This document shows, in pieces, positions 29,701-64,000 of a DNA stretch of 64,000 nucleotides. The notes under the pieces are model-generated. The model was not told the DNA's origin. It searched no databases and worked only from the letters and a program-made list of their open reading frames with translations. The stretch covers positions 158,288,001 through 158,352,000 of the forward strand of contig CM059431.1 in assembly GCA_030390025.1 (NCBI GenBank), in the 5' to 3' direction. A program made the position numbers and the translations under genes. The DNA comes from Squalus acanthias. Its lineage: Eukaryota. The first letter of the stretch is position 1. Each line of letters opens with the position of its first letter.

Positions 29701-29726
29701 TGAACCGGCATCCTGCTGTGATTTAC
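29701..29726 (-). CDS. 26-nt tail exon: VNHSRMPV(Q), phase 0 to 2
   Basis: aattaatttcag| ... |gtaagc; phase fits neighbours. Confidence 0.65.
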
Positions 29727-30659: not shown

Positions 30660-31518
30660 CTGTAAATTAAAGAATATGTTTGAGATTTGTTTTTCAAGTA
30701 TTCATTGACAGTCCAAATAGTCTCAAACAATTAGAAAAGCTGCTGTTATTTCATAACACTCAGAGAAAAAAAAACTCTAAGCGAAAGATGAACCATCCGT
30801 GAATATGTAAGAAAGTAAATGATAGTGTGAACTTGAGAATAAAAGCATATAATGTTGCGAAGAATAGCAGCTCTTCTTTAGAGCCTTTCAAACAGTAAGA
30901 CGGCCATTGGCGCCTCACAGAGCAGGAATTTAGAGTTAAACTGCCTCTTTTCCGTAGAGTTAAGAGAAACGACCTAGTATTTGCAACATGTGGAGGTTGT
31001 TTAAAGTAAGTAGGAAGTAAAGAGTGGAAGCCCAAGGCAACGGATTCCAGACAATGGTGCTGACGACTTTGTTGGAGTCCGGAGCAGAGGAACCAATAAT
31101 CTGGGGACCACAGCAAAGGGAGAGGATGGACCAGAAATAAAAGAGGGTTTCTGAAGATGACTGTAAAATTAAGACGCTCGAGACCGTAAAGGTAATTGTA
31201 GATGAGTAGGAGTCTTTCACAAATTGTTTGGAATAGCAAGTGAATGTCGGTCACCGACGAATGGGATTATGGAAAAGTTGAAATGACGGTGAACTGATGA
31301 ATTGAAGCAGTCGAGCTCTGGAGATTCTATCTGGCAGTGCCCAAAAGCCGTTTAAGGAATCGAGTCTAAACCTCACAAAAGCGTATCTAAATCACTAGCA
31401 AATATTCATATGTTCTCATATATCCAGAAAATTAAAATATGATGGTTGCGGACGGTGATCTGAGAATCCATTCGAAATTTATTGCTTGGAATCACCAGAT
31501 GCTGCTAATCAATTAGAA

Positions 31519-31543
31519 CTAGTCGTGACTGTCGCTTGTTAGC
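31519..31543 (-). CDS. Candidate alternative terminal exon D: (R)LTSDSHD* (DYF* in other units)
   Basis: Acceptor ttattagctctttag, phase 2 fits exon C, AATAAA at 31478-31483. Present in all units. Confidence 0.3.
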
Positions 31544-31824
31544 CTAAAGAGCTAATAAATAATGCACACATAGTTAAAGAAAGTAACAGTAAATGCAAGC
31601 TCATTCCTTCTTTCTTGGGAAAACTAAACTGCGATACGGACCGGAGAAATTGAAATACTGTGAATCTAAATGTACTCAAAATAAATTTGATAGATATCAA
31701 TACAACAATTACAAGAACACACCATTGGGATAAAGTTATTGATATCAAATTGAAAAAATAACTAAATCTCAAATACCACGTCTGAAACATGGCAATAGCT
31801 GGTAGGAATCATAATTGAATGTAC

Positions 31825-31861
31825 CTGATTCTAAAATGCCTATCGATGTAAGTAGAAAGAC
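31825..31861 (-). CDS. Candidate 37-nt linker exon C: (G)LSTYIDRHFRI(R)
   Basis: Acceptor tttagtctctctcag, donor CAG|gtacat. Copies at 38758-38794 and 58422-58458 (donor altered) and 47409-47445 (intact). Confidence 0.4.
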
Positions 31862-32809
31862 CTGAGAGAGACTAAATAAAGAACGTCCCGGAATTAGCGG
31901 TCAGCGCGAAGCAAAGGCATTTGCTGCGGCCACAAAGTAAGCTTGACACAAAGATCTCGCAATCAGGTTTTCCGAAGTGTAATTCAAATCAACGGAGCAT
32001 CATTGGGAATCCCGAGTGCAAGCTGCTGTGAAGTCAACAGGCTGTCTAAGCATCCAAACAAAACGCAGAATTCTCACAGACAGCGAACAAGGAAGTGAAT
32101 AAGCTGTTGAACTTCTAACATTTCAAAATATCATTCAGCGAACGAAACAAATATTGGGGCTCTAACATGCGGAAAATGCAAAGCAGAAATAAGGAAGAAA
32201 AATCTTTTAAAATAATTACATTTTCAGAATAATGTTAATTTTTATTTAAATGAATAAAGTTGTCTCTGCACAACATAAAAATTCGATTTTCTGGCCGTCA
32301 CATTGGTTTAGAATTCAATACGCTGTTGCAATCCAGTTACACCCTTCCCTTTCAGTCAAACTTTTAGTGGGGAATTCAAGAGCGCAATTACGGTGAAAGA
32401 GCCGAAGATTACATCAGTTTTCCTGATTTGAGAGTTTTCCCTGATGACCGGCTCTGGGTGGGCACAGGGCAGCCTCTGCAATTTTATTGGAGTCAAAGGA
32501 AGGGAACATAGGACCGAGCGAACAACGGGCAGCAGATGCAATGCCGGCCGTTTTTCGGCGAGGACAGAACACAGACCGTATCTCATCCATCGCCTGTTAT
32601 ATGTTGCGCGCGAATAAACTTGAATTGAGCTGAATATCGGGCGTGTGTGCAACTGTCGACAAATGTCATCCGGCCATTGTGTGTTCCCGACAATTAGAAT
32701 TTCATCCATCTGGACATCAACTTAAAATAAGTTTCTCGACATAAATAATGAACTCTCTTACTATGAAAGTAAACGAGATCTTTTGCAATTAGATTTTGAC
32801 ATCGCCTAC

Positions 32810-33008
32810 CTTCTAGATCATGTTTTGTCCCTGTATCTCTGTTCTGTATCTCTGACAATGTCGCTTTCAGTTTGGGTTCTGTATTCTGCAGTTGAAGAAA
32901 TATGTTCCACATTGTTCTTTCTCCCCGAGCTCCCTTTTCCAGCACGATATCGAAAATGCGTTGGGATGCATTGTTTCTGCGCGTACTTTCAGCAAGTGTA
33001 CTGATTTC
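32810..33008 (-). CDS. CARD-like exon B, unit 1: EISTLAESTRRNNASQRIFDIVLEKGARGERTMWNIFLQLQNTEPKLKATLSEIQNR(DTGTKHDLE)
   Basis: Acceptor atgtttttag, phase 0. Normal donor after 32837 reads AT; an in-frame GAAG|gtaggc donor lies 27 nt further. IFDIVLEKG matches the CARD helix-5 LxDxVxxKG pattern. Confidence 0.75.
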
Positions 33009-34473
33009 CTAAAAACATATTGCAATCATATTGAACAAAGTATTTTACAAAATCAACTAAGAAACGTCGGTTTTGTGTCTCCCTCTCTTTATGGGAGGAA
33101 TGAATAGAAAAACTCACAATCAGGTGATCAAAATCTATGTCATCGCGGTAAGTTATAAGGAGCGTCTCTAAAGAGCAGAGAATGGCAGACGGCCGGAGAG
33201 GATTACAGAGTTAATTCCAGAGTTTAGGACCGAGAGAGCACAACGCACCGCTAACAATGGTGGCGTGAAGAGAATCGGGGTTGCGCAATGGTTCAGAATT
33301 TGATGAGCACAGAGATCACGGAGGATTGTAGGGCTGGAGGATGCTGCACAGATAGAGAGGACTAGCGTTGAGTCACCGAGGGAAGTTGAATTTTCTCAAC
33401 TGATATGAAAAAATGTTAAGTGCTAAATAAAAGGGGAAAAGTCAGATTTCAGGAATATGGTTCGTGCAAAATGAAGCATTATTTGTTGTTAGTAACAGCA
33501 ATATTCTGGAAAGCTCACAAAGTGCTTTTAGAAACTCAAACTGCACAGATTGCAAAACAATGCGGGTGAAATTGGAATCGGCCAGTCGCATGACAGGTGC
33601 TGATAGCGAATGGTCGACTCGTGTTACACGCGTCCGTATTTCTTTACCATTGATTGCAATTAGACTTCCGTTCATTTCAAGTATCATTCATCGAAACAGT
33701 AGCACAAGCTTATCAGTCAATCCTTCATCTTCTATATGAAACATTTGCTTTGAATACCTGAATAGTCCTGTCTTATGAGTAACTATATTATTTGAAGTGT
33801 TTATGAAATGTGATCATTGTCCCGAAAACTGTCTCATGCCAATCACCAAATTCTTAAACTGTCAACGTTTTACCTTTTGCTCGTTAACCTCTATGTTTCT
33901 TTGATTTGATTTATATAATCAACCCCCTACATTCAATTTTTAAATCTACTTTTAATTTCCTTTTCTATGCACATCCAAATAATTCTTGTATGTGCTCCAT
34001 TGCTTTTATTATCGTGTAATTCCTTTATATAGTATCGCAATCATTTCCTAGTTGGTAACTTCGTATTGCTTCCCGACGGAATTATCTGATCCATTGCCTC
34101 CCAATATATCTGGACTAGAGTGTTGTTGATTTGTGCAAAATGGTTATCCTGTACATATACATTGCGTTGATTTACTGTTCTTCTGAATTCTAAGGATATC
34201 ATTGCTTCATAGATATCCGTTATCCGTTTGCAGAAATTGATACAATACTCATTCCTTCCCTGTTGTGCTGGAAACGTACCCATCTACCTCACGTCCTGGA
34301 TACGTGGCAGATAGCACACTCCCTCTTCCACCCGTACATCACTTCTATACTTTAGATATTTAAAGTCATCCATATCTCTGATACCCTCGCTAAAATGTCT
34401 CCATTTTTCAATATATCGCTTCCTCAATTCGTGACCCACCACTTGTGAATGAAAATGAACTCCTCATAGTTAA

Positions 34474-35294
34474 TGGCTAGGTTTTTCGATCGCAGGAATC
34501 CCGGGTGCGCAGGTCTGCAATCTAGAAGAATCTACGCCCTTACCTTCGGGTTCCCGGGACGCACACGATTCAGATCCTGGGCCTCTCCAATCTCGATTTG
34601 CGCAGGGCCCTATTATCCCAGAGGCACAGGCAGATTACAGGGAGCATGGGATCATGTGGGCCATGGGGAGCCAATCAAAGTAGGGAAACTGCATTCATAC
34701 ACGTGACAGGAAGACCTTTCAAATATATGAATGGAGATCACCCCAAAAACATAGTGGCCCAGAAATTCCTTTCGCAGGCCGCCCGCGGGCGGAGGACTGC
34801 GATCTGGAAAAATCTGTGCCCGGACCGCAGGGGTCCCGGGAGGCGCAGAGTTCCGTTGCTTGGTCTCTCCAAACTTCCGGTGCGCAGGTCCCACGTATCC
34901 CAGAGGCGCAGGCGGTTCGCAGCGTCCCTGGGATCACGTAGGGAGCCAATCAGAGAAGGGAATCTCCCTTCATACATTTGACAGGAAGACCTGCCAAATA
35001 TATGAATGGAATTCACCCCCAAAACATAGTAAAAGCAAGCCTTAGCCCTGCTTTTACCAGGCATACGATTTATAATGGTTTTCTACAGGCGGGGGTTCTC
35101 CAGAAAGCGGAAATATCCGTCCGCAGAGGACCTTCTCCAGGCTCGGCGTCCAATCTGTCAAGAGCATTCTTGACAGATCGGAAATTACGGATTTCAGCGC
35201 ATGCGGTTGGCATGCCTGAAACCGTCATTTCCGAAGTCCCTACGGTTGTGTACACAGCGCGTACACACCCGTAAGGATCCGAATATCCGGTCCA
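34474..35294. mobile_element. Non-autonomous TIR element (MITE-like) with ~275-bp internal subrepeat
   Basis: Ends ttaa-TGGC...GGCCCA-ttaa. Copies at 43122-43943, 54137-54968 and 61074-61895. Confidence 0.65.
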
Positions 35295-36048
35295 TTAACG
35301 CCAATCTCCCAGCCGTGCGCTTACATTAACCATGTCTTCATATCATAACTTCCAAGAGCATCTTCAGACAATCGCAACCTTCAACTAATCAGTTTTATTC
35401 ACCATGCTTTATTATTATATGTGTTACATAATTTCAGGAAATATTAGAAAAGAGATCAGATTGACATCATGCATGAGACTCGGAATTTTATTTTAAATAG
35501 GACATGATGGCTGTCATGACAAGAGATGCCGGTAATGTTATGTCCCTGAGCATTGGGCAGAAGAATAAACGTGAAGGCTTAAAGTTGCGTAACCCATGGA
35601 CTGGATGAATTTTGCGAGTGCTTGGTGAGACGTAGAATAATGCAGATATTTTGTGGTTGTTAACTATAAATAATAATTGTGGCAGGGAAGTTGGTAGATA
35701 GGCAGGTAGAATCAGCCATGCAGTGAAGTTGGAAGGAGAAAATTAACGGAAGCAACGACTTGGATATGTTCAGGAGAAAGTTCTAGAAATTGGTGCCACC
35801 GGCAGTGACTCACACGAATCGTCTCGTTTAATTAAAATGCACGTCACCTTTGCTAAAGAACGGACAGAATATATCGGCCGTGAGCGACAGCTTATTTTAA
35901 ATATGTCAGTTAACTTATTTTCCTGAGATTAGCTATATGTGGCTATTAGATGTTCTAACTAGCTCCAGGATATCCATTGGGTATTTGCTGAGTAGGCGTG
36001 ATGCTTGTGCTGCTAGTGGTATCTTCTTCAAATATTCATTACAATATT

Positions 36049-36802
36049 TGGCCCGTAATTTTCGTTAGGTGGCTGCCTGCGTGCGCATGCCTCCTATCGG
36101 GAAGAAATCTACGCCATTACCTGAGGGCTCCCGAGGAGGAGCCATTTCCGATCCTGTGCCTGTCCACAGTAGAAATGCGCAGTGCCCACCTGATCCCAGG
36201 GACGCTTGCGAAGCTCGTGAGCCCCTGAGATAGGTGGACAGGCGAGAGAATAGAAGGGAATCTCCCTTCATACCTTTGACAGATAGACCTGTCAAAGTTA
36301 TGAATGGAGATCACCCCAAAAGCAAATCAAAACAATAAATACCTTTTTAAAAAGCATCGCGTTTTTAAAATGAGTAACATTAATATTAATTTAAATTTTT
36401 TAAACAAAAATTTAATGTTTTAAAAAAAATAATTAAAGATTTTTACTGAGCTAAAATTAAACTTAACTTATTTAGAAGTACTTTAAAATTATAAGTGAGT
36501 GAAAAAATCTATTTTTTTTACTTTTTTATACTCCTGCGCTGGGAAAAGCCGGCTTTACGCGTGCTTTTACCAGGAGTACGATTTTTAAGTGTTTTCAAGA
36601 GCGGATGTCCTGCAGCGGAAATCTCCACCCGCAGATTCCCTTCTCTGGGGCAAGCGTCCGATTTGCCAAAATGATTCTTGACAGATCGGAAATGCCGGTT
36701 TTCAGCGCATGCGCTTCGCATGCCTGAATCTGGCATTACCGATGTCCCGACGGTTATGTACACCGAGCGTACTCACACGTTGGCATCGGAAAATACGAGC
36801 CA
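36049..36802. mobile_element. Second member of same TIR element family (tggcccgtaattttc...gaaaatacgagcca)
   Basis: Imperfect TIRs, internal similarity to 34474-35294, AT-rich core. Copies at 44697-45454, 55723-56481 and ~62662-63418. Confidence 0.65.
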
Positions 36803-37547
36803 TTGTGTCTTGGCGTGTTCCTTGCAATCCTGAAATTTGGATTAATTGCTCCTTGCATAGGATGCCATTTATGTCCGATTACAGAAACAACATTCACCCA
36901 AATCCCTGCAGAAATACGGCCAAGGTAAATAGCTTAACTGCAAGACGGTTTCCAGTGAATTATCAGTTGATTAGAAAGTCTCTTTCTGCAGATGGTTTTT
37001 GCCTGTCACTTATGCGGCACAAATGTTACTTCCTAATTATCCAACAAAACTGGAATGTTGATCAGATCTTGTTGCATACGGGCATGTACTGTTTAGTTAC
37101 CTGAGCAATTGGGAATGGAATTGAACACTGCAATCATCAGCGTACAGCCCAAATTATGACCGTATGACAGAAAAAAAATTATTGATGAAGCAGCTGACGG
37201 TATTTGGGTCGAGGATTCTTCCACAATGAACTCATGGTTATAATATGAGATGCTGTTCTCTTGTTATTTAACACATTAAAAACGACAAGTTCTGTTTCCT
37301 TTGAGACGATATTAGCTGTAATCTAAGAGCACGTGAAAGGGTGGGCCGTGAGAAGGTTGTTATCATTCACCCCATGGCAATCAAGTCCTCGCACCACCAC
37401 ACATACCCCGCGAACATAAAGTCGCCAGAGAATACAACCGTTAAACCAGCAAAGCCGTGCTGTTCCAGACCGACTTGAACAATCTCCCACCAACCCGTCT
37501 CAAATTTAGGAGGCCATTTAGACAATTCCAACATATATGTAGCATAC

Positions 37548-37717
37548 CTTATGAATTGTTTCAGTAAACACGTTTGCATCTAAGAGCGATTGACTAACAG
37601 CTTCCACGAATTCTTCAATGGACGATTCTAGTCTCTGACGGTAGCAGCCGATAATTCTTCCAAGCTGGATATCCGTGTAGCCCGCCAACATTAGTAACAA
37701 TATAGTATCTGAATTTT
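37548..37717 (-). CDS. CARD-like exon A, unit 1: (E)NSDTILLLMLAGYTDIQLGRIIGCYRQRLESSIEEFVEAVSQSLLDANVFTETIHK
   Basis: 170 nt, acceptor tttacacttttacag, donor AAG|gtatgc, phase 1 to 0, open. YRxRLExxIEExVExVS pattern as in shark NLR-like N-terminal domains (recalled). Confidence 0.8.
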
Positions 37718-39769
37718 CTGTAAAAGTGTAAATGAGAACAGGTTACAATACTATGTTTGCTTTGAAGCAATGCATAATTTGAACTAACTTTTAGAGTCGC
37801 AGCTTTTCTTTAGAGCCTTTCAAACAGTGAGACGGCCAATGGCGCCTCACAGAGCAGGAATTTAGAGTTAAAGCTGCCTCCTTTTCGTAGAGTTAAGAGA
37901 AACGACCTAGTACTTGCAACATGTGGAGGTTGTTTAAAGTAAGTAGGAAGTAAAGTGTGGAAGCCCAAGGGAACGGATTCCAATCAGTGGTGCTGACGAC
38001 TTTGTTGGAGTCCGAAGCAGAGGAACCAATAATCTGGGGACCACAGCAAAGGGAGAGGATGGACCAGAAATAAAAGAGGGTTTCTGAAGAAGACTGTAAA
38101 ATTAAGACGCTCGAGACCGTAAAGGGAATTGTAGATGAGCAGGAGTCTTTCACAAATTGTCTGGGATAGCAAGTGAATGTCGGTCACCGACGAATGGGAT
38201 TATGGATAATTGGAGATGAGGGTGAATTGATGAATTGAAGCAGTCGAGCTCTGGAGATTCTATCTAGCAGTGCCCTTAAGTCGTTTAAGGAATCGAGTCT
38301 AAACGTCACAAAAGCGTATCTAAAACACGAGCAAATATTCATATGTTATCATATATCCAGAAAATAATAATATGATGGTTGCGGACGGTGATCTGAGAAT
38401 CCATCCGAAATTTATTGCTTGGAATCACCAGATGCTGCTGAGCAATTAGAAATAGTCGTGACTGTCGCTTGTTAGCCTAAAGAGCTAATAAATAATGCAC
38501 AGATAGTTAAAGAAAGTAACAGTAAATGCAAGCTCATTCCTTCTTTCTTGGGAAAACTAAACTGCGATACGGACCGGAGAAATTGAAATACTGTGAATGT
38601 AAATGTACTCAAAATAAATTTGATAGATATCAATACAACAATTACAAGAACACAACATTGGGAAAAAGTTATTGATATCAAACTGAAATAATAACTAATT
38701 CTCAAATACCACATCTGAAACATGGCAATAGCTGTTAGGAATCATAATTGAATGTAACTGATTCTAAAATGCCTATCGATGGAAGTAGAAAGGCCTGAGA
38801 GATACTAAATAAAGAACGGCCCGGAATCAGCGGTCAGCGCGAAGCAAAGGCATTTGCTGCGGCCACAAAGTTAGCTTGACACAAACATCTCGCAGTCATG
38901 TTTTCCGAAGTGTAATTCAAATCAACGGAGCATCATTGGGAATCCCGAGTGCAAGCTGCTGTGAAGTCAACAGGCTGTCTAAGCATCCAACCAAAACGCA
39001 GAATTCTCACAGACAGCGAACAAGGAAGTGAATAAGCTGTTAAATTTCTCACAATTAAAAAAATGATTGAGCGAACGAAACAAATATTGGGGCTCTAACA
39101 TGGGGAAAATGCAAAGCAGAAATAAGGAGGAAAAGTCTTTTAAAATAATTACATTTTCAGAATAATGTTAATTTTTATTTAAATGAATAAAGTTGTCTCT
39201 GCACAAAATAAAAAAAATAGATTTTCTGGCCATCACATTTGTTTAGAATTCAATACGCTGCTGCAATCCAGTTACACCCTTCCCTTTCAGTCAAACTTTT
39301 AGTGGGGAATTCAAGAGCGCAATTACTGTGAAAGAGCCGAAGATTACATCAGTTTCCCTGATTTGAGAGATTTCCATGATTACCGGCTCTTGGTGGGCAC
39401 AGCGTAGCCTCTGCAATTTTATTGGAGTTAAAGGAAGGGAACATAGGACCGAGCGAACAACGGGCAGCAGATGCAATACCGGCCGTTTTTCGGCGAGGAC
39501 AAAACACAGGCCGTATCGCATCCATCGCCTATTATATGTTGCGCGCGAATAAACTTGAATTGAGCTAAATACGGGCGTGTTTGTAACTGTCGGCAAATGT
39601 TACCGGCCATTGTGTGTCCCCGACAATTAGAATTTCATCCTCATGGACATTAACTTAAAATAAGTTCCTCGACATAAATCATTAACTCTCTTACTCTGAA
39701 AGTAAACGAGATCTTTTGCAAATAGATTTTGACATCGCCTACATTCTAGATCATGTTTTGTCCCTGTAC

Positions 39770-39941
39770 CTGTCTTCTGTATATCTGATAATGTGGCATT
39801 CAGTTTGGGTTTTGTATTCTGCAGTTGAAGAAATATGTTCCACATTGTTCTTTCTCCCCGAGCTCCCTTTTCCAGCGCGGTATCGAAAATGCGTTGGGAA
39901 GCATCGTTTCTGCGCTGACTTTCAGCAAGTGTACTGATTTC
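39770..39941 (-). CDS. CARD-like exon B, unit 2 (EISTLAESQRRNDASQRIFDTALEKG...LSDIQKT)
   Basis: 172 nt, intact AG and ACAG|gtacag, open. Confidence 0.78.
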
Positions 39942-40198
39942 CTAAAAAAAATATTACAATCATATTGAACACAGTATTTTACAAAATCAGCTAAGAAACG
40001 TCGGTTTTCTTTCTCCCTCTCTTTAAGGGAGGAATGAATAGAAAAGCTCACAATCAGGTGACCAAAATCTATGTCAACGAGATAAGTTATAAGGAGCGTC
40101 TCGAAAGAGCAGAGAATTGCAGACGGCCGGAGAGGATTAGAGAGTTAATTCCAGAGTTTACGACCGAGGCAGCACAACGCACGGCTACCGATGGTGGC

Positions 40199-41910
40199 AT
40201 AGAACATATAGAACAGTGCAGCACATTACAGGCCCTTCGGCCCGCGATGTTGTGCCGAGCATTGTCCGAGACCAAGATCAAGCTATCACACTCCCTATCA
40301 CTCTGGTGTGCTCCATGTGCTTATCCAATAACCGCTTGAAAGTTCCTAAAGTGTCAGACTCCACTATCACAGCAGGCAGTCCATTCCACACCCCAACCAC
40401 TCTCTGAGTAAAGAATCTACCTCGGACTTCCCTTCTATATCTCCCCCCATACACCTTATAGTTATGCCCCCTTGTAACAGCTGCCTCTACCCGAGGAAAT
40501 AGTCTCTGAACATCCACTCTATCTATCCCCCTCATCATCTTATAAACCTCTATTAAGTCGCCTCTCATCCTCCTCCGCTCTAAAGAGAAAAGCCCCAACT
40601 CCCTCAATCTTTCCTCATAAGACCTCCCCCCCAAACCAGGCAGCATCCTGGTAAATCTCCTTTGCACTCTTTCCAATGCTTCTACGTCCTTCCTATAGTG
40701 AGGTGACCAGAACTGCACACAATATTCCAAATGTGGTCTCACCAAGGTCCTGTACAGTTGCAGCATAACCTCACGGTTCTTAAACTCAAACCCTCTGTTA
40801 ATAAACGCCAACACACCATAGGCCTTCTTTACTGCTCTATCAACTTGAGTGGCAACCTTCAGAGATCTGTGGATATGAACCCCCATATCCCTCTGCTCCT
40901 CCACGTTCCTCAGAACCCTGCCGTTGACCCTGTAATCCTTATTCAAATTTGCCCTCCCAAAATGAATCACCTCGCACTTATCAGGGTTAAATTCCATCTG
41001 CCATTTTTCGGCCCAGCTCTGCATCCTATCAATGTCTCTTTGCAGCCTACAACTGCCCTCCACCTCATCCACTACTCCACCAATCTTGGTGTCATCAGCA
41101 AATTTACTGATCCACCCTTCAGTCCCCTCCTCCAAGTCATTGATAAAAATCACAAACAGCAGAGGACCCAGCACCGACCCCTGTGACACACCGCTGGTAA
41201 CTGGTCTCCAGTCCGAAAATGTTCCATCCACCACCACCCTCTGCCTTCTATGAGATAGCCAGTTACTTATCCAATCGGCCAAATTTCCCTCTATCCCACA
41301 ACTCCTTACTTTCTTCATGAGACGACCATGGGGAACCTTATCAAACGCCTTACTAAAATCCATGTATACGACATCAACTGCTCTACCTTCATCTACACAC
41401 TTAGTTATCTCCTCAAAGAATTTAATCAAATTTGTTAGGCAAGACTTACCCTTCACGAATCCGTGTTGACTATCCCTGATTAAGTTGCCCCTTTCCAAAT
41501 GGTCATAAATCCTATCCCTCAGGACTTTTCCATTATCTTACCAACCACCGAAGTAAGACTAACCGGCCTATAATTACCAGGGTCATTTCTATTTCCTTTC
41601 TTGAAGAGAGGAACAACATTCGCCACTCTCCAGTCCTCTGGCACCATCCCCGTGGACAGTGAGGACCCAAAGATCAAAGCCAGAGGCTCTGCAATCTCCT
41701 CCCTTGCCTCCCAAAGAATCCTAGGATATATCCCATCTGGCCCAGGGGACTTATCGACACTCAGGTTCTTCAAAATTGCTAAAACATCTTCCCTCAGAAC
41801 AACTACCACCTCCAGCCTATCCACCTTTATCACACTCTCATCCTCAAGAACATGGCCCCTCTCCACGGTGAACACTGACGAAAAGTATTCATTCATCACC
41901 TCTCCTATCT
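40199..41910 (-). mobile_element. Young 5'-truncated CR1 LINE inserted only in unit 2
   Basis: 406-aa RT ORF 40278-41498 plus upstream frame 41519-41910. Inserted in atggtggc|gtgaagag, which is empty in the other units. Confidence 0.96.
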
Positions 41911-44900: not shown

Positions 44901-46198
44901 GAAGGGAATCTCCCTTCCTACCCTTGACAGATAGAGCTGTCAAAGGTATGAATAAAGATCACCCCAAAAACAAATCAAAACAATAAATACATTTTTCAAA
45001 AGCATCGCGTTTTTAAAATGAGTAACATTTAAATTAATTTATATATTTTAAACAAAAATGTAATGTTTTGAAAAAATTTATTATAGATTTTTACGGATCT
45101 AAAATTAAACTTACCTTATTTAGAAGTTCTTAAAAATTATAAATGAGCGAAAAAATATGTATTTTTTTACTTTTTTAAACTCTGGTGCTCTGAAAAGCAA
45201 GCCTTACGCCTGCTTTTACCAGGAGTACGAATTTTAACTGTTTTCAAGACCGGATGTCCTGCAGCAAGCGGAAATCTCCACCCGCAGAGGCCCTTCTCTG
45301 GGGCAAGCGTCTGATCTGTCAAGATGATTCTTGACAGATCGGAAATGCCGGTTTTAGCGCATGCACTTCGCATGCCTGAAACCGGCATTACCGATGACCC
45401 TACGGGTGTGTACACAGCGCGTACTCACACGTAGGCATCGGAAAATACGAGCCATTGTGTCTTGGCGTGTTCATGCAATCCTGAAATTTGAATTAATTGC
45501 TCCTTGGATAGGATGCCATTTATGTCCGATTACAGAAACAACAGTAACCCGAATCCCTGCAGAAATACGGCCAAGGTAAATAGCTTAACTGCAAGACGTT
45601 TTCCAGTGAATTATCAGTTGATTAGAGAGTCTCTTTCTGCAGATGGTTTTTGCATGTCACTTATGCGGCACAAATGTTACTAGCTAATTATCCACCAAAA
45701 CTGGCATGTTGACCAGATCTTGTTGCATACGGGCATGGACTGTTTAGTTACCTGAGGAATTGGGAATGGAATTGAACACTGCAATCATCAGTGTACAGCA
45801 CAAATTCTGACCGTATGACAGAAAAAAATGAATTGATGATGCAGCTGACGATATTTGGGTCGAGGATTCTTCCACGATGAACTCATGGTTATAACATGAG
45901 ATGCTGCTCTCTTATTATTTAACGCATTAAAAACCTCAAGTTCTGTTTCCTTTGAGACGATATTAGCTGTAATCTAAGAGCACGTAAAAGGGTGGGCCGT
46001 GAGAAGGCTGTTATCATTCACCCCATGGCTTTCAAGTCCTCGCACCACCACACCTACGACGCGAACATAAAGTCGACAGAGAATACAACCTTTAAACCAT
46101 CAAAGCCATGCCGTTCCAGACCGACTTGAACAATCGCCCAACAACTCGTCTCATATTTAGGAGGCCATTTAGACAATACAAACATATATGTAGCATAC

Positions 46199-52500: not shown

Positions 52501-53654
52501 CCACAGGGGTCAGTGCTGGGTCCCCAACTCTTTACAATCTATATTAACGATTTGGAGGAAGGGACCAAGTGTAACATATCAAAATTTGCAGATGATATAA
52601 AGATGGGAGGGAAAGTAGTGAGTGAGGAGGACATAAAAAACCTGCAAGGGGACATAGACAGGCTAAGTAAGTGGGCAGAGATTTGGCAGATGGAATACAA
52701 CACTGGAAAGTGTGAGGTGATGCACTTTGGCAGGAAAAATCCTAGAGCAATTTATTATCTTAATGGCAAGAAACTGGAGAGTACTGAAGTGCAAAGGGAT
52801 CTGGGGGTCCTGGTGCACGAAACTCAAAAGATTAGTATGCAGGTGCAGCAAGTGATTAAGAAGGCAAATGGAATGTTGGCTTTCATTGCTAGGGGGATAG
52901 AATATCAAAATAGGGAGGTATTGCTTCAGTTGTAAAAGGTATTGGTGAGACCGCACCTGGAATGCTGCATACAGTTTTGGTGTCCTTACTTAAGGAAAGA
53001 CATCCTTGCTCTCGAGGCAGTGCAAAAAAGGTTCACTCGGTTAATGCCGGGGATGAGGGGGTGGTCATATGAGGAGAGGTTGGGTAGATTGGGACTCTAC
53101 TCATTGGAGTTCAGAAGAATGAGAGGCGATCTTATTGAAACATATAAGATTGTGAAGGGGTTGGATCGGGTGGATGCGGGGAGGATGTTCCCGATGACGG
53201 GTGAGACTAGAACTAGGGGACATAGTCTTAGAATAAGGGGCTGCTTTTTTCAAAACTGAGATGAGGAGGAACTACTTCACTCAGAGGGTGGTAGGTCCAT
53301 GGAATATGCTGCCACAAAAAGCTGTAGAAGCTACATCTTTAAATAAATTTAAAACATAAATAGACAGTTTACTAGAAGTAAAGGGCATTAAGGGTTACGG
53401 GGTGCGGGCAGGAATTTGGACATGAGTATAGGTTCGGTTCGGTCATGGCCCTGTGGGTAGTGGAGCGGGCCCAGGGACCGTGTAGCCTGATTCTGCTCCT
53501 ATTTCGTGTGTGCAATTCTGTTAGATGCAGGAGATGGTACTGTGATAGATAGTAGATTGGCGGTTAGGATCAGATCAGCCATGATCTTATTGAATGGCGG
53601 AGCAGGCTCGAGGGGCCGATTGGCCTACTCCTGCTCCTATTTCTTATCTTCTTA
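49570..53654 (+). mobile_element. Near-complete CR1 LINE (partial ORF1 with SGNH esterase, ORF2 APE+RT, 3' UTR) inserted only in unit 3
   Basis: VGDSIIRG/VHVGTND/DGLHL; YLNARSI, ITETWL, YRPP, MGDFN, SDH; RT motifs. Stops at ~49917, 52084 and 52933. Empty site aatt[cttgtatg]tgctcc in other units. Confidence 0.97.
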
Positions 53655-56600
53655 TGCTCCACCCGTTTTATTATCGTGTAATTCCTATAAATCGTATAGC
53701 AATCATTTCCTACTTGGTACCTTCGTATTGCTTCCCGACGGAATTATCTGATCCATTCCGTCCCAATATATCTGTGCTCGTGTGTTCTTGATTTGTTGAA
53801 ATTGGTTATCCTGTACATATATATTGCTTTGATTTACTGTTCTTCTGAATTCTAATGATATCACTGCATCTTAGATATCCGTTATCCGTTTGCAGTAATT
53901 GATCCAATACTCATTCCTTCCCTGTTGTTCTGGAACCGTACCCATCTATCACACGTCCTGGATACGTGGCAGATAGCACACTCCCTCTTGCACCCGTACA
54001 TCACTTCTATACTTTAGATATTTTAAGTCCCCCATATCTCTGATACCCTCGCTAAAATGTCTCCATTTTTTCAACATATCGCTTCCTCAATTCGTGACCC
54101 ACCAGTTGTGAATGAAAATTAACTCCTCTTAGTTAATGGCCAGGTTTTTCGATCGCAGGAATCCCGGGACCGCAGGTCTGCAATCTAGAAGAATCTACGC
54201 CCTTACCTTCGGGATCCCGGGACGCACACGATTCCGATCCTGGGCCTCTCCAATCTCCACTTGCGCAAGGCCCTATTATCCCAGAGGCACAGGCAGATTA
54301 CAGGGTGCCTGGGATCATGTGGGCCATGGGGAGCCAATCAAAGTAGGGAAACTGCATTCATACACTTGACAGGAAGACCTTTCAGATATATGAATGGAGA
54401 TCACCCCAAAAACATAGTGGCCCAGAAATACCTTTCGCAGGCCGCCCGCGGGCGGAGGACGACGATCTGGAAAGATCTGTGCCTGGACCGGAGGGGTCCC
54501 GGGAGGCGCAGAGTTCCGTTGCTTGGTCTCTCCAAACTTCCGGTCCGCAGGACCCACGTATCCCAGAGGCGCAGGCGGTACGCAGGCGGTTCGCAGCGTC
54601 CCTGGAATCACGTAGGGAGCCAATCAGAGAAGGGAATCTCCCTTCACACATTTGACAGGAAGACCTGACAAATATATGAATGGAATTCACCCCCAAAACA
54701 TAGTAAAAGCAAGCCTTAGCCCTGCTTTTACCAGGCATACGATTTCTAATGGTTTTCTGCAGGCGGGGGTTCGACAGAAAGCGGAATTATCAGTCCGCAG
54801 AGGACATTCTCCAAGCTCGGCGTCCAATCTGGCAAGAGCATTCTTGACAAATCGGAAATTACGTATTTCAGCGCATGCGCTTGGCATGCCTGAAACCGGC
54901 ATTTCCGCTGTCCCGACGGTTGTGCATACAGCGTGTACACACCCGTAAGGATCGGAATATGCGGCCCATTAACGCCAAGCTCCCAGCCGTGCGCTTACAT
55001 TAACTATTTCTTCATATAATAACTGCCTAGAGCATCATCAGACAATCGCTACCTTCATTTAATCAGCTTTATTCACCATGCTTTATTAATATATGTGTTA
55101 TATAACTTCAGGAAATATTCGAAAAGAGATCAGATAGACATCATGGATGAGACTCGGAATTTTATTTTAAATAGGACATGATGGCTGTCATGACTGGAGA
55201 TGCCGGTAATGTTATGTCTCTGAGTGATGGGCAGAAGAATGAACGTGAAGGCTTAAAGTTGCGTAACCCATGGACTGGATGAATTTTGCGAGTGCTTGGT
55301 GAGACGTAGAATAATGCAGATATTTTGAGGTTGTTAATTATAAATAATAACTGTGGCAGGGAAGTTGGTAGATAGACAGGTAGAATCAGCCATGCAGTGA
55401 AGTTGGAAGGAGAAACCAAATGGAAGCAACGACTTGGATATGTTCAGTAGAAAGTTCTAGAAATTTGTGCCACCGGCAGTGACTCAAATGAATCGTCTCG
55501 TTTAATTAAAATGCACGTCACCTTTGCTAAAGAACGGACAGAATTTCTCGGCCGTGAGCGACAGCTTATTTTAAATATGTCAGTTAATTTATTTTCCTGA
55601 GATTAGATATATGTGGCTATTAGATGTTCTATCTAGCTCCAGGATATCCATTGGGTCTCTGCTGAGGACGCGTGATGCTTGTGCTGCTAGTGGTATCTTA
55701 TTCAAATATTCATTAAAATATTTGGCCCGTAATTTCCGTTAGGAGTCTTCCTGCGTGCGCATGCCTCCGATCGGGAATAAATCTACGCCCTTACCTGAGG
55801 GCTCCCGAGGAGGAGCCATTTCCGATCCTGGCCTGTCCAGAGGAGAAATGCGCAGGGCCCACCTGATCCCAGGGACGCTTGCGAAGCTCGTGAGCCCCGG
55901 AGATAGGTGGACAGGCGAGAGAATAGAAGGGAATCTCCCTTCATACATTTGACAGATAGACCTGTCAAAGGTATGAATGTAGATCACCCGAAAAAGAAAT
56001 CAAAACAATAAATACATTTTTACAAAGCATCGCGTTTATAGAAATGAGTAACATTTATACTAATTTAAATAATTTAAACAAAATTTAGTGTTTCGAAAAA
56101 AATAATTAAAGATTTTTACGGAGCTAAAATTAAACTTACCTTGTTTAGAAGAACTTTAAAATTATAAATGAGCGAAAAAATATGTATTTTTTTTACTTTT
56201 TTAAACTCTTGTGTGTGGGAAAAGCACGCCTTACGCCTGCTTTTACCAGGAGTACGATTTTTAAGTATTTTCAAGAGCGAATGTCCTGCAGCAAGCGGAA
56301 ATCTCCACTCGCAGAGGCCCTTCTCTGGGGCAAGCGTCCGATCTGTCAAGATGATTCTTGACAGATCGGAAATGCCGGTTTTAGCGCATGCGCTTCGCAT
56401 GCCTGAAACCGGCATTACCGATGTCCCTCCCGGTGTGTACACAGCGCGTACTCACACGTAGGCATCGGAAAATACGAGCCATTGTGTCTTGGCGTGTTCC
56501 TTGCAATCCTGAAATTCGGATTAATTGCTCCTTGGATAGGATGCAATTTATGTCCGATTACAGAAACAACAGTAACCCGGATCCCTGCAGAAATAGCTTA

Positions 56601-57212
56601 ACTGCAAGACGTTTTCCACTGAATTATCAGTTGATTGGAGACTCTCTTTTTGCAGAAGGTTTTTGCATGTCACTTATGCGGCACAAATGTTATTTGCTGA
56701 TTATCCACCAAAACTGGCATATTGACCAGATCTTGTTGCATACGGACATGGACTGTTTAGTCACCTGAGGAATTGGGAATGGAATTGAACACTGCAATCA
56801 TCAGTGTACAGCCCAAATTCTGACCGTATGACAGAAAAAAATGAATTGATGATGCAGCTGACGATATTTGGTTCGAGGATTCTTCCACGATGAACTCATG
56901 GTTATAACATGAGATGCTGTTCTCTTATTATTTAACGCATTAAAAACGACAAGTTATGTTTCCTTTGAGACGATATTAGCTGTAATCTAAGAGCAGGTAA
57001 AAGGGTGGGCCGTGAGAAGGCTGTTATCAATCACCCCATGGCTTTCAAGTCCTCGCACCACCACACCTGCGCACGCGAACATAAAGTCGCCAGAGAACAC
57101 AACCTTTACAGCAGCAAAGCCATGCCGTTCCAGACCGACTTGAACAATCTCCCACCAAACCGTCTCAAATTTATGAGGCCATTTAGACAATTCCAACATA
57201 TATGTAGCATAC

Positions 57213-57382
57213 CTTATGAATTGTTTCAGTAAACACGTTTGCATCTAAGAGCGATTGACTAACAGCTTCCACGAATTCTTCAATTGACGATTCTAGTGTC
57301 TGACGGTAGCAGCCGATAATTCTTCCAAGCTGGATATCCGTGTAGCTCGCCAACATTAGTAACATTTTAGTATCTGAATTTT
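57213..57382 (-). CDS. CARD-like exon A, unit 3 (..MLLMLASYTDIQLGRIIGCYRQTLESSIEEFVEAVSQSLLDANVFTETIHK)
   Basis: Open, donor intact. Canonical acceptor AG->AC (57383), but an in-frame ttcag lies 9 nt downstream. Confidence 0.65.
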
Positions 57383-59434
57383 GTGTAAAAGTGTAAATTT
57401 GAACAGGTTAAAATACTATGTTTGCTTTGAAGCAATGAATAATTTGAACTAACTTTTAGAGCAGCAGCTTTTCTTTAGAGCCTTTCAAACACTGAGACGG
57501 CCAATGGCGCCTCACAGAGCAGGAATTTAGAGTTAAACTGCCTCCTTTTCGTAGAGTTAATAGAAACGACCTAGTACTTGCAACACGTGGAGGTTGTTTA
57601 AAGTAAGTAGGAAGTAAAGAGTGGAAGCCCAAGGCAACGGATTCCAATCAGTGGTGCTGACGACTTTGTTGGAGTCCGGAGCAGAGGAACCAATAATGTG
57701 GGGACCACAGCAAAGGGAGAGGATGGACCAGAAATAAAAGAGGGTTTCTGAAGAAAACTGTAAAATTAAGACGTTCGAGACCGTAAAGGGAATTGTAGAT
57801 GAGCAGGAGTCTTTCATAAATTGTCTGGGATAGCAAGTGAATGTCGGTCACCGACGAATGGGATTACGGATAAGTGGAAATGAGGGTGAATTGATGAATT
57901 GAAGCAGTCGAGCTCTGGAGATTCTATCTGGAAGTGCCCTTAAGTCGTTCAAGGAATCGAGTCTAAACGTCACAAAAGCGTATCTAAAACACGAGCAAAT
58001 ATTCATATGTTATCTTATATCCAGAAAATTATAATATGATGGTTGCGGACGGTGATCTGAGAATCCATTCGAAATTTATTGCTTGGATTCACCAGATGCT
58101 GCTGAGCAATTAGAAATAGTCGTGACTGTCGCTTGTTAGCCTAAAGAGCTAATAAATAATGCACAGATAGTTAAAGAAAGTAACAGTAAATGCAAGCTCA
58201 TTCCTTCTTTCTTGGGAAAACTAAACTGCGATACGGACCGGAGAAATTGAAATACTGTGAATGTGAATGCACTCAAAATAAATTTGATAGATATCAATAC
58301 AACAATTACAAGAACACAACATTGGGAAAAAGTTATTGATATCAAATTGAAATAATAACTAATTCTCAAATACCAGATCTGAAACGTGACAATAGCTGGT
58401 AGGAATCATAATTGAATGTAACTGATTCTAAAATGCCTATCGATGGAAGTAGAAAGGCCTGAGAGATACTAAATAAAGAACGGCCCGGAATCAGCGGTCA
58501 GCGCAAAGCAAAGGCATTTGCTGCGGACACAAAGTAAGCTTGACACAAAGATCTCGCAATCAGGTTTTCCGAAGTGTAATTCAAATCAACGGGGCATCAT
58601 TGGGAATCCCGAGTGCAAGCTGCTGTGAAGTCAACAGGCTGTCTAAGCATCCAACCAAAACGCAGAATTCTCACAGACAGCGAACAAGGAAGTGAATAAG
58701 CTGTTAAACTTCTAACATTTAAAAAAATGACTGAGCGAACGAAACGAATATTGGGGCTCTAACATGGGGAAAATGCAAAGCAGAAATAAGGAGGAAAGGT
58801 CTTTTAAAATAATTACATTTTCAGAATAATGTTAATTTTTATTTAAATGAATAAAGTTGTCTCTGCACAAAATAAAAAAATAGATGTTCTGGCCATCACA
58901 TTTGTTTAGAATTCAATAAGCTGTTGCAATCCAGTTACGCCCTTCCCTTTCAGTCAAACTTTTAGTGGGGAATTCAAGAGCGCAATTACTGTGAAAGAGC
59001 CGAAGATTACATCAGTTTCCCTGATTTGAGAGATTTCCCTGATTACCGGCTCTGGGTGATCACCGCGCAGCCTCTGCAATTTTATTGGAGTCAAAGGATG
59101 GGAACATAGGACCGAAGGAACAACGGGCAGCAGATGCAATACCGGCCGTTTTTCGGCGAGGACAAAACAAAGGCCGTATCGCATCCATCGCCTATTATAT
59201 GTTGCGCGCGAATAAACTTGAATTGAGCTGAATATCGGGCGTGTATGTAACTGTCGGCAAATGTCTACCGGCCATTGTGTGTCCCCGACAATTAGAATTT
59301 CATCCTCCTGGACATCAACTTAAAATAAGTTCCAAGACATAAATAATGAACTCTCTTAATCTGAAAGTAAATGAGATATTTTGCAATTAGATTTTGACAT
59401 CGCCTACATTCTAGATCATGTTTTGTCCCTGTAC

Positions 59435-59606
59435 CTGTCTTCTGAATCTCTGACAATGTCGCTTTCAGTTTGGGTTTTGTATTCTGCAGTTGAAGAAATA
59501 TGTTCCACATTGTTCTTTCTCCCCGAGCTCCCTTTTCCAGCGCGGTATCGAAAATGCGTTGGGACGCATCGTTTCTGCGCTGACTTTCAGCAAGTGTACT
59601 GATTAC
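59435..59606 (-). CDS. CARD-like exon B, unit 4 (VISTLAESQRRNDASQRIFDTALEKG...LSEIQKT)
   Basis: 172 nt, intact splice sites, open. Its exon A would lie just beyond 64000. Confidence 0.78.
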
Positions 59607-62600
59607 CTAAAAAAATATTGCAATCATATTGAACAAAGTATTTTACAAAATCAGCTAAGAAACGTCGGTTTTCTTTCTCCCTCTCTTTATGGGAGGAATG
59701 AATAGAAAAGCTCACAATCAGGTGACCAAAATCTATGTCAACGAGATAAGTTATAAGGAGCGTCTCGAAAGAGCAGAGAATTGCAGACGGCCAGAGAGCA
59801 TTTGAGAGTTAATTCCAGAGTTTACGACCGAGGCATCACAATGCACGGCTACCAATGGTGGCGTGAAGAGAATCGGAGTTGTGCAATGGTTCAGAATTTG
59901 ATGAGCACAGAGATCACGGAGGATTGTAGGGCTGGAGGATGTTGCAGAGATAGAGAGGACTAGCGTTGAGTCACCGAGGGAATCTGAATTTTCTCAACTG
60001 ATATGAAAACAGGTTAAGTGCCAAATAAAAGGGGAAAAGCCAGATTTCAGGAATATGCTTCGTGCAAAATGAAGCATTATTTGTTGTTCGTAACAGCAAT
60101 GTTCTGGAAAGCTCACAACGTGCTTTTAGAAACTCAAAACTGCTCAGATTGTAAAACAATGCGGGTGAAATTGGAATCGGTCAGTCACATGACAGGTGCT
60201 GATAGCGAATGGTCGGCTCGTGTTACACGCGTCCGTATTTCTCTACCACTCGTTGCAATTCGACTTCCGTTCATTTCAAGTATCACTCATCGAATCAGCA
60301 GCACAAGCTTATCAGTCAATCGTTCATCTTCTATATGAAACATTTGCTTTGAATACCTGAATAGTCCTGTCTCATGAGCAACTATTTTATTTGAAGTGTT
60401 TATGAAATGTGATCATTGTCCCGAATTCTGTCAACTGCCAATCACCAAATTCTTAATCTGTCAACGTTTTACCTTCTGCTCGTTAACCTCGATGTTTCTT
60501 TGATTTGATTTATATAATCAACCCCCTACATTCAATTTTTAAATCTACATTTCATTTCCTTTTCTATGCACATCCAAGTAATTCTTGTATGTGCTCCACC
60601 CGTTTTATTATCGTGTAATTCCTATATATCGTATCGCAAACATTTCCTACTTGGTACCTTCGTATTGCTTCCCGACGGAATTAACTGATCCATTCCCTCC
60701 CAATTTATCTGGGCTAGTGTGTTCTTGATTCGTTGAAATTGGTTATCCTGTACATATATTTTACTTTGATTTACTGTTCTTCTGAATTCTAATGATATCT
60801 TTGCTTCTTAGATATCCGTTATCCGTTTGCAGAAATGGATCCAGTACTCATTCCTTCCCTGTTGTTCTGGAAACATACCCATTTATCTCACGTCCTGGAT
60901 ACGTGGCAGATAGCACACTCCCTCTTCCACCCGTACATCACTTCTATACTTTAGATATTTAAAGTCATCCTTTTCTCTGATACCCTCGCTAAAATGTCTC
61001 CATTTTTTCAATATATCGCTTCCTCAATCCGTGACCCACCACTTGTGCATGATAATGAACCCCTCATAGTTAATGCCCAGTTTTTTCGATCGCAGGAATC
61101 CTGGGTGTGCAGGTCTGCAATCTGGAAAAATCTACGCCCTTACCTTCGGGATCCCGGGACGCACACGATTCCGATCCTGCGCCTCTCCAATCTCCATTTG
61201 CGCAGGGCCCTATTATCACAGAGGATCAGGCAGATTACAGGGTTCCTTGGATCATGTGGGCCATGCGGAGCCAATCAAAGTAGGAAATCTGCATTCATAT
61301 ACTTGACAGGAAGACCTGTCAAATATATGAATGGAGATCACCCCAAAAAAATAGTGGCCCAGAAATTCCTTTCGCAGGCCGCCCGCGGGCGGAGGACTGC
61401 GGTCTGGAAAAAATCTGCGCCTGGACCGGAGGGCTCCCGGGAGGCGCAGAGTTCCGTTGTTTGATCTCTCTAAACTTCCGGTGCGCAGGGCCCACGTATC
61501 CCAGAGGCGCAGGCGGTTCTCAGCGTCCCTGGGATCACGTAGGGAGCCAATCAGAGAATGGAATCTCCCTTCATACATTTGACAGGAAGACCTGTCAAAT
61601 ATATGATTGAAATTCACCCCCAAAACATAGTACAAGCAATCCTTAGCCCTGCTTTTAGCAGGCATACAATTTCTAAGGGTTTTCTGCAGGCGGAGGATCT
61701 CCAGTAAGCGGAAATATCCGTTCGCAGAGGACCTTCTCCAGGCTCGGCGTCCAATCTGTCAAGAGCATTCTTGACAGATCGGAAATTACGGATTTCAGCG
61801 CATGCGCTTGGCGTGCCTGAAACCGGCATTTCCGATGTTCCTACGGTTGTGCACACAGCGCGTACACACACGTAAGGAACGGAATATCCGGCCCATTAAC
61901 GCCAAGCTCCCAGCCGTCCGCTAACATTAACACGTAGTTGTTAATGTCTTCATATCATAACTTGCTAGAGCATCATCAGACAATCGCTACCTTCAATTAA
62001 TCAGCTTTATTCACCATACTTTATTAATATATGTGTTACATAACTTCAGGAAATATTCGAAAAGAGATCAGATAGACATCATGAATGAGACTCGGAATTG
62101 TATTTTTAATAGGACATGATGGCTGTCATGACAGGAGATGCCGATAATGTTGATGTCCCTGAGGATTGGGCAGCAGAATGAACGTGAAGGTTTAAAGTTG
62201 CGTAACCCCTGGACTGGATGAATTTTTCGAGTGCTTGGTGAGACGTAGAATAATGCAGATTTTTTGAGGTTGTTAATTATAAGTAATAACTGTGGCAAGG
62301 AACTTGGTAGATAGGCAGGTAGAATCAGCCATGCAGTGAAGCTGGAATGAGAAAAGAAAAGGAAGCAACGACTTGGATATGTTCAGTAGAAAGTTCTAGA
62401 AATTGGTGCCACCGGCAGTGACTCACACGAATCGTCTCGTTTAATTAAAATGCACGTCTGCTTTGCTAAAGAACGGACAGAATTTCTCGGCCGTGAGCGA
62501 CAGCTTATTTTAAATATGTCAGTTAATTTATTTTCCTGAGATTGGATATATGTGGCTATTAGTTGTTCTATCTAGCTCCAGGATATCCATTGGGACTTTG

Positions 62601-64000
62601 CTGAGGACGCGTGATGCTTGTGCTGCTAGTGGTATCTTATTCAAATATTCATTACAATATTTAGCACGTAATTTCAGTTAGGAGGATTCCTGCGTGCGGA
62701 TGCCTCCTATCGGGAAGAAATCTACGCCCTAACCTGAGGGCTCCCGAGGAGGAGACATTTCCGATCCTGGGCCTGTCCACAGTAGAAATGCGCAGGGCCC
62801 ACCTGATCCCAGGGACGCTTGCGAAGCTCGTGAGCCCCTGAGATATGTGGACAGGCGGGGGAATAGAAGGGAATCTCACTTCATACCTTTGACAGATAGA
62901 CCTGTCAAAGGTATGAATGGAGATCACCCCAAAAACAAATCAAAACAATAAATACATTTTTAAAAAGCATCGCCCTTTTAAAATTAGAAACATTTAGATT
63001 AATTTAAATAATTTAAACAAAAATGTAATGTTTTGAAAAAAAATTAAAGAAATTTACGGAGCTAAAATTAAACTTACCTTATTTAGAAGTACCTTTTAAT
63101 TATAAATGAGTGAAAAAATATATATATTTTTACTTTTTTAAACTCCTGTGCTGGGAAAAGCAGGCCTTACGCCTGCTTTTACCAGGAGTACGATTTTTAA
63201 GTGTTTTCAAGAGCGGATGTCGTGCAGCAAGCGGAAATCTCCACCCGCAGAGTCCCTTCTCTGGGGCAAGCGTCCGATCTGTCAAGATGATTTTTGACAG
63301 AGCGGAAATGCCGGTTTTCAGCGCATGCGCTTCGCATGCCTGAAACCGGCATTACCGATGACCCTACGGGTGTGTACACAGCGCGTACTCACACGTAGGC
63401 ATCGGAAAATACGAGCCATTGTGTCTTGGCGTGTTCCTTGCAATCCTGAAATTTGAATTAATTGCTCCTTGGATAGCATTGCATTTATGTCCGATTACAG
63501 AAACAACAGTAACCCGAATCCCTGCAGATATACGGCCAAGGTAAATAGCTTAACTGCAAGACGTTTTCCAGTGAATTATCAGTTGATTAGAGAGTCTCTT
63601 TTTGCAGATGGTTTTTGCCTGTCACTTATGCGGCACAAATGTAATCTGCTAATTATCCACCAAAACTGGCATTTTGACCAGATCTATTAGCATACGGGCA
63701 GGGACTGTTTAGTTACCTGAGGAATTGGGAATGGAATTGAACACTGCAATCATCAGTGTACAGCCCAAATTATGACCGTATGACAGAAAAAAATTAATTG
63801 ATGATGCAGCTGACGATATTTGGGTCGAGTATTCTTCCACGATGAACTCATGGTTATAACATGAGATGCAGTTCTCTTCTTATTTAACGCATTAAAAACG
63901 ACAAGTTCTGCTTCCTTTGAGGCAATATTAGCTGTAATCTAAGAGCACGTAAAAGGGTGGGCCGTGAGATGGCTGTTATCATTCACCACATGGCTATTAA

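Follow-up and report, generated by a model that had tools for sequence, protein, structure and literature searches.

The question raised by a 64,000-nucleotide stretch of the Squalus acanthias genome (GenBank assembly GCA_030390025.1, contig CM059431.1, forward-strand positions 158,288,001 to 158,352,000; hereafter the window, with positions counted from its first base) is whether a tandem array of a two-exon module, likely to encode a CARD and lying ahead of a transmembrane (TM) exon, represents a domain expansion still under way in a working gene or the remains of an older one. Weighing the evidence below, we assign a probability of about 55% to the reading that an old amplification of the module took place in a CARD-TM gene, that its copies are now drifting, and that a product could be made only by skipping module 2.

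Self-BLAST of the window and alignment of the resulting units revealed a head-to-tail array on the minus strand running from 30867 to the right window edge, with three complete units and a fourth truncated by the edge, i.e. at least four units. Unit 1 (30867..37798), proximal to the TM exon, carries exons B1 and A1; unit 2 (37799..46449) and unit 3 (46450..57463) carry B2 and A2, and B3 and A3, respectively, each with an inserted CR1-type long interspersed nuclear element (LINE); and unit 4 (57464..64000, the window edge) carries B4, its exon A being expected just past 64000, such that only three A exons and four B exons lie within the window. With the LINE inserts excised, units 1, 2 and 3 measure 6,932, 6,938 and 6,929 bp, and all six unit pairs are 93.1-94.9% identical (Kimura two-parameter distance 5.3-7.3%), with identity of 90-99% per 100 columns maintained right up to the edge. 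The junction retains 81 nt of intron ahead of exon A1 (start 37717), and the other boundary, at 30867, lies 207 nt ahead of the TM exon (start 30659). An earlier reading of the same DNA by a model that saw only its letters and open reading frames (the sequence-only reading) had proposed an amplification of at least four units of ~6.93 kb, with breakpoints ~80 bp from the exon A acceptor and ~205 bp from the TM exon, all of which these measurements bear out. Its shared gcagc is indeed found at the junction, but simply as the bases with which the aligned unit closes, and identity extends one base further at two of the three junctions; microhomology was rejected as unshown. That the array is an artefact of assembly is very hard to credit, given units that are 5-7% apart in a tree-like pattern and that carry unit-specific LINEs of 1.7 and 4.1 kb.

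Along the minus strand the coding exons follow the order B4, A3, B3, A2, B2, A1, B1, TM. Exon A comprises 170 nt and runs from phase 1 to phase 0, exon B comprises 172 or 199 nt and runs from phase 0 to phase 1, and the TM exon starts in phase 1; the module is flanked by phase-1 introns and the duplication breakpoints are intronic, in agreement with the class 1-1 symmetry ascribed to it previously. That symmetric class 1-1 exon modules undergo tandem duplication is already known. As also proposed, no ATG exon lies inside the unit, the leader exon of the family being found three times to the left of the array and nowhere within it, and since the unit lacks a leader, TM or NACHT exon, the duplication is of an exon module and not of a whole gene.

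Closer inspection of individual exons identified both intact and damaged copies. Exons A1 (37548..37717; 170 nt, phase 1-0) and B1 (32810..33008; 199 nt, phase 0-1) are open. Exons B2 (39770..39941) and B4 (59435..59606; phase 0-1), both of 172 nt, keep the first B donor and have a second in-frame GT at 39743 and 59408, respectively. The first donor is absent in B1 and in B3 (48396..48594; 199 nt), both of which offer, 27 nt further on, a donor that looks stronger (AAG/GTAGGC in B3). In exon A3 (57213..57382) the canonical acceptor has changed from AG to AC, and an in-frame AG 9 nt downstream would move the exon start to 57373. All of these alternative splice sites shift by 9 or 27 nt and hence stay in frame, and the sites singled out by the sequence-only reading (39770, 37717, 59435 and 57373) are real GT/AG sites. 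Exon A2 (46199..46368) carries an in-frame TAA at codon 45 (46234-46232), at which the complete exon chain meets a stop at residue 222. With module 2 skipped, the frame B4-A3-B3-A1-B1-TM is open with either of the two tails described below; the array would thus yield a membrane-anchored protein with several CARDs only on condition that this module and its stop are left out. The expectation that each added unit contributes one CARD in frame was not upheld, as the second step of growth likely added two units and unit 2 brings a stop.

Assignment of the module to a protein family relied on searches by tblastn and with a profile hidden Markov model (HMM). Both matched all seven window exons, which places them with the N-terminal modules of the elasmobranch NLRP3-like NLR family, and the three complete joined modules score 125-139 bits on the HMM of 168 homologous modules. 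The closest relatives include two uncharacterised models, XP_072354261.1 from the catshark Scyliorhinus torazame (P0006; 1,405 aa; older model GCB66031.1, P0001) and XP_078390056.1 from the basking shark Cetorhinus maximus (P0003; 342 aa); these two, the former as its older model, were also the only sequences retrieved among 7,999 by a word-based search with the seven-row exon alignment, the same search with exon B1 alone scoring none of 23 candidates. The Pfam CARD model (PF00619) matched none of six single window exons, each of which is half a domain, and this counts against the assignment. It does match XP_072354261.1 with 40.4 bits against a cut-off of 23.9, the best stretch spanning residues 641-711, and module 1 is 54% identical to the module bearing that stretch; XP_078390056.1, at 22.9 bits, falls narrowly under the same cut-off, which P0004 passes. 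By this proxy the CARD identity put forward earlier is supported, and the two-exon module likely encodes a CARD. Top matches of exon B1 in the ESM Atlas are CARD clusters at 0.85, which we regard as a lead only, and the Atlas returned no usable match with XP_078390056.1. The single-sequence structure model of that protein reached a mean predicted local distance difference test score of 42 and had no Foldseek match, so that a six-helix death fold is unconfirmed. Sequence matches in the PDB contained no CARD, and one further PDB search matched only via NACHT/LRR. Weak matches to annexin, FXR and other helical structures were also recovered and were taken as chance.

A tree was built from 41 modules: all 13 of P0001, P0003, P0006 and the smooth-hound protein XP_078087540.1 (P0002), the three of the window, and 25 sampled randomly among the remaining 155. 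With bootstrap values not fully settled, the window modules form one group (98/92) inside a 16-row clade (100/100) that joins window, catshark, smooth-hound and basking shark modules, apart from generic NLR modules. Within this clade, which corresponds to a shark-specific CARD subfamily, mean identity is 39%, compared with 76% among generic NLR CARD modules. Multi-module forms are common in the family: of 122 proteins, counting isoforms, 83 carry a single B half, 33 carry two, five carry three and one carries five, such that 39 of the 122 have at least two. No NACHT or LRR match was found anywhere in the 64-kb window with the 122 proteins as queries.

Phylogenetic comparison of the units points to an ordered history. 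Of 89 informative sites, 60 pair units 1 and 3 against units 2 and 4, the other two groupings receiving 13 and 16 (binomial p 5e-11; bootstrap 100). This pattern points to a probable growth from a single unit to two and then to four; the first B donor, kept in B2 and B4 and missing from B1 and B3, is distributed in the same alternating way. Terminal branches (2.5-3.6%) are far longer than the internal branch (1.0%), and each of the two LINE inserts is restricted to a single unit, which argues that growth occurred in a short burst and that none of the visible units was duplicated afterwards. In the first step, an intron-to-intron duplication would have copied A and B together with nearly the whole B-to-TM intron, and since the last 81 nt before exon A were retained, the splice signals would survive. 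In the second, suggested by the shared sites, unequal crossing-over between the copies would have doubled the pair. Later events are each confined to one unit, and comprise the two LINE insertions, the stop in A2 and the acceptor change in A3. The claim that the breakpoints bracket exactly one module would hold only for the first duplication step, since the crossover of the later doubling may fall anywhere in the unit. Using the mutation rate of 7e-10 per base per generation given for the epaulette shark (PMC10587355), the units would be 38-52 million generations old, or 19 million at the upper confidence limit of the rate, figures that convey an order of magnitude only as a genome-wide rate is borrowed from another species. 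Given 5.3-7.3% divergence and the CR1 insertions that followed, the description of an expansion caught in progress is unsupported for these four units.

The exons of the units have changed at the pace of their introns: exon B has accumulated 23 changes over 199 columns, compared with 760 over 6,285 in the introns (Fisher p 0.91), and exon A 14 over 170, compared with 623 over 6,531 (Fisher p 0.69). Nonsynonymous changes number 26.5, where the intron rate predicts 28.6 (ratio 0.93, 95% confidence interval 0.61-1.35), and the ratio of nonsynonymous to synonymous rates (dN/dS) pooled over units is 1.0, giving no sign of purifying selection on the added copies. Strong purifying selection is ruled out, and the data do not separate decay from relaxed or from diversifying evolution.

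Evidence for splicing was obtained from contigs, presumed to be RNA, of three runs of one study, which were mapped to 29000-38000 at 85% identity. All three runs contain a joint of A to B whose GT-AG ends fall on the predicted bases, i.e. those of exons A1 and B1. Two of the three also contain a joint leading from the B donor at 32810 to an A acceptor at position 37708, which lies 9 nt inside the canonical one. The sites used by the contigs are exactly those that B3, B1 and A3 would require. Relative to unit 1, however, the contigs mismatch at 26/162, 15/102 and 12/119 bases, whereas the window units mismatch at only 5-12, 3-9 and 6-8. As the contigs carry variants found in no window unit, splicing of modules in series is documented for a paralog ~85-90% identical and not for the window copy. 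The sequence-only reading had predicted B-to-A splicing, and had named its absence, together with dN/dS near 1 across units, as signs of a neutral duplication; the joint does occur at the predicted sites, albeit in the paralog, and its absence can therefore not be claimed for the family, while the pooled dN/dS is indeed the one it had associated with neutrality. Pairs of A-B contigs have similar depth (35.7 and 33.7; 52.5 and 59) and end at the same base, and because each pair consists of two different A-B contigs, a linear multi-module transcript appears to fit them better than back-splicing, itself a possible source of the B-to-A joint. No B-to-TM joint is among the joints listed; neither this nor the contig depth in the bin of the TM exon (0, 1.17 and 0) was used as evidence, since a diverged paralog TM exon would fail to map at 85% identity. 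Two contigs also carry ~920 nt upstream of exon A, which would hold the 5' end of the paralog.

Several observations weigh against the reading of an old array with drifting copies. The dN/dS test is based on 34 changes and rules out only constraint stronger than ~0.6, and a stop or frameshift is found in just one of the seven exon copies. Seven of 11 exonic variants checked, among the variants listed, are absent from every window unit, which removes the contigs as a witness for the window copy. Nor was the doubling clean, as the distances between units 1 and 3 (6.6%) and between units 2 and 4 (5.3%) are unequal and the alternation disappears over the final kilobase, where 0 of 6 sites show it, a fading suggestive of a degree of conversion or of a crossover within the array. 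The scarcity of lesions in particular could be expected of a working receptor with diversifying CARD repeats, in which a dN/dS of ~1 would reflect relaxed together with positive selection on an ectodomain and module 2 would be routinely skipped. Such a receptor would also account for the lost A3 acceptor and the absent first B donor both being covered by in-frame sites that the paralog uses, and for the low identity among subfamily modules relative to generic NLR CARDs noted above. Against this, neutral simulation left zero or one copy broken in 18% of 5,000 runs, so few lesions thus also arising under drift, although maintenance of frame is still conceivable; exon and intron rates are indistinguishable; and the expressed contigs come from another copy. 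We therefore consider a working receptor unlikely, though it is the alternative that we take most seriously, and prefer an old amplification whose copies now drift.

The single-copy TM exon (30478..30659, minus strand) starts in phase 1 and encodes a 19-residue segment with a hydropathy of 3.06, followed by CC and basic residues. It either uses an internal phase-1 donor after 30531 or is read through to a stop at 30478; the candidate last exon for the former option (30104..30183, minus strand) is in frame, without homolog or RNA support, and would add a 26-residue tail with a YxxV motif before its stop. Splicing of B1 to this exon is likely on the basis of frame and of the relatives. Among the 122 family proteins, a TM segment was found in only three (XP_078390056.1, XP_072354261.1 and XP_078087540.1, the last from the smooth-hound Mustelus asterias and labelled 'NACHT, LRR and PYD domains-containing protein 3-like'), all of them belonging to the clade of the window modules. 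In XP_078390056.1 and XP_072354261.1 the TM segment directly follows a B half and is alignable with the window TM exon, their alignment scores being reached by three and one of 5,000 block shuffles, respectively. The match of XP_078087540.1 is weaker (60 of 5,000), and its TM segment precedes its CARDs.

These comparisons bear on two further explanations of the gene structure. The boundary at 30867 could be the joint at which a TM exon was attached to a pre-existing array, or the 6.9-kb unit could have been imported from a paralogous array, as might be expected in a family in which multi-module forms are so frequent and in which a paralog ~85-90% identical already joins B to A. The order CARD then TM is, however, common to the basking shark and catshark models and is thus likely older than the array, and unit 1 at its very edge is as similar to the other units as elsewhere; we regard capture or import as improbable. 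It is also conceivable that the TM exon is internal and that the gene runs on past the left window edge to CARD-NACHT-LRR exons, as in XP_072354261.1. The phase-1 donor of the TM exon would permit this, and both XP_072354261.1 and XP_078087540.1 pass from TM into CARD-NACHT-LRR. Yet the 30 kb downstream, searched by tblastn with the 122 proteins and with the 168-module HMM, yielded neither A or B exons nor a NACHT exon and instead contain three leader exons of other NLR genes, and we rate a continued gene slightly lower still.

The 5' end of the window gene lies beyond 64000, and it is the relatives that hint at the side of the membrane its CARDs might face. All three TM-bearing relatives possess a hydrophobic N-terminal stretch, compared with one of the 119 other proteins as judged by hydropathy. 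Taken at face value, XP_078390056.1 reads signal-2 CARDs-TM-tail, XP_072354261.1 reads signal-4 CARDs-TM-CARD-NACHT-LRR, and XP_078087540.1 reads signal-short ectodomain-TM-3 CARDs-NACHT-LRR. A caution to be set against these signal peptides is that they are hydropathy calls on automatic models and represent two independent lineages only, XP_078390056.1 and XP_072354261.1 sharing module pairs and hence not being independent; the NACHT links of TM-bearing models may likewise stem from fused models. XP_072354261.1 and XP_078087540.1 may accordingly be NLRs that span the membrane, unless their models are fusions. The TM helix of the window ends in CC and has a net charge of -2 before and +1 after it, an arrangement compatible with a type I protein as well as with a tail anchor. 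Sequons for N-glycosylation number six in the six pre-TM modules of relatives, two in the three window modules and two in four post-TM modules, against a mean of 0.34 in the 155 generic modules, counts that speak for neither orientation. Given a product, we favour, by a narrow margin, a type I protein with lumenal or extracellular CARDs and a short cytosolic tail, as in the relatives with signal-like starts, over an adaptor resembling MAVS or CARD19 with cytosolic CARDs. More tentatively, and on balance less likely than not, the locus may be a member of a shark type I family in which duplications of the two-exon cassette give a CARD-string ectodomain of variable length, some members being wired to cytosolic CARD-NACHT-LRR; it would then illustrate how that length changes.

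Comparison with known systems delimits what is unusual here. XP_072354261.1 and XP_078390056.1 share with the locus several consecutive modules followed by an alignable TM segment, their modules being 38-54% identical to module 1 and in one clade with it (100/100). They differ in that their modules are old and mutually diverged, whereas the window modules are 88-91% identical, lineage-amplified and in one case interrupted by a stop, and in that XP_072354261.1 continues to CARD-NACHT-LRR, exons of which kind are absent within 30 kb of the window array. XP_078087540.1 has three near-identical modules of the same subfamily at residues 135-487, which would represent an independent and much younger smooth-hound amplification; its TM segment is only weakly similar, and in its order of TM, CARDs and NACHT-LRR the CARDs would be cytosolic. 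The NLRP3-like NLRs of elasmobranchs carry a homologous N-terminal module (33-44% identical) in one to three copies per protein, and three of their leader exons lie in the window, but generic members form a separate conserved clade, have NACHT-LRR, and lack a TM (0 of 118) or signal-like segment. An 'NLRP-related expansion' has been reported in the whale shark, tandem or membrane-linked CARDs not being described in the consulted passages of that account (PMC8455134).

MAVS and CARD19 each possess one cytosol-facing CARD at the mitochondrial outer membrane (PMC8997538) and resemble the locus in having a CARD N-terminal to one TM helix, a likeness that in the window follows from exon order and frame and would depend on the B-to-TM splice. 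They differ in having a single CARD in place of several modules, and relatives of the window gene have signal-peptide-like N-termini. No sequence link to MAVS or CARD19 was found, all five matches of one search and the 120 listed of 317 matches of another being shark or ray NLR-like or uncharacterised proteins. Zebrafish NLR-B30.2 genes have repeated N-termini (PMC4852459), whereas the window repeats a whole two-exon death-fold domain ahead of a TM helix. Anthozoan membrane-bound NLRs, in which NLR-family domains are likewise joined to TM helices, have three to five N-terminal TM helices, stated to be anthozoan-specific (PMC5094078), and differ in that no CARD repeats precede a single TM. Our literature search, with most subscription journals outside its coverage, found no paper on shark poly-CARD membrane proteins.

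Taken by itself the amplification is only modestly interesting, its mechanism being textbook and the window copy apparently under relaxed constraint or in decay. The array nevertheless provides a base-resolved record of how CARD number may change in a shark immune cluster, through a step at the module edges followed by a homology-based doubling. If the signal-peptide-like starts of the relatives are true, CARD repeats would be displayed extracellularly and some NLRs would span the membrane, which would constitute a new receptor design in jawed vertebrates; to our knowledge, death-fold domains act as cytosolic adaptors and vertebrate NLRs are soluble.

Further features were identified in the introns and beside the array. 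The insert of unit 2 is a 5'-truncated LINE (40199..41911, minus strand) in the A2-B2 intron, in gene sense and 258 nt from the B2 acceptor; its open reverse transcriptase frame of 419 aa matches Pfam RVT_1, and from this domain and its tail we take it to be of CR1 type. The insert of unit 3 is a 4.1-kb CR1-type LINE (about 49570..53654, plus strand) in the A3-B3 intron, antisense to the gene, with frames of 188, 558 and 282 aa. These are long and nearly open, which suggests a comparatively young insertion, and the most similar copies within the window reach no more than 66-70% identity. The A-B intron also contains ~265-bp GC-rich repeats of two kinds (34490-35296 and 36049-36804) at the same places in every unit, with contig depth of up to ~1,250; they are likely SINE-type (short interspersed nuclear element) and have no Rfam match, a search of 28000-64000 returning none at all.

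To the left of the array, three NLR leader (ATG) exons of 64 nt each with a phase-1 donor end (23366-23303, 17558-17495 and 1704-1641, minus strand) sit in segmental duplicates ~78-82% identical. The leaders at 23366 and 17558 have no CARD exon before the next leader and look like orphan 5' ends. The same region contains a C-rich 23/27-bp minisatellite (9394-14275, 18445-18975 and 15134-15260), whose main block spans 4.3 kb with ~186 copies and whose shorter copies lie within the duplicated segments.

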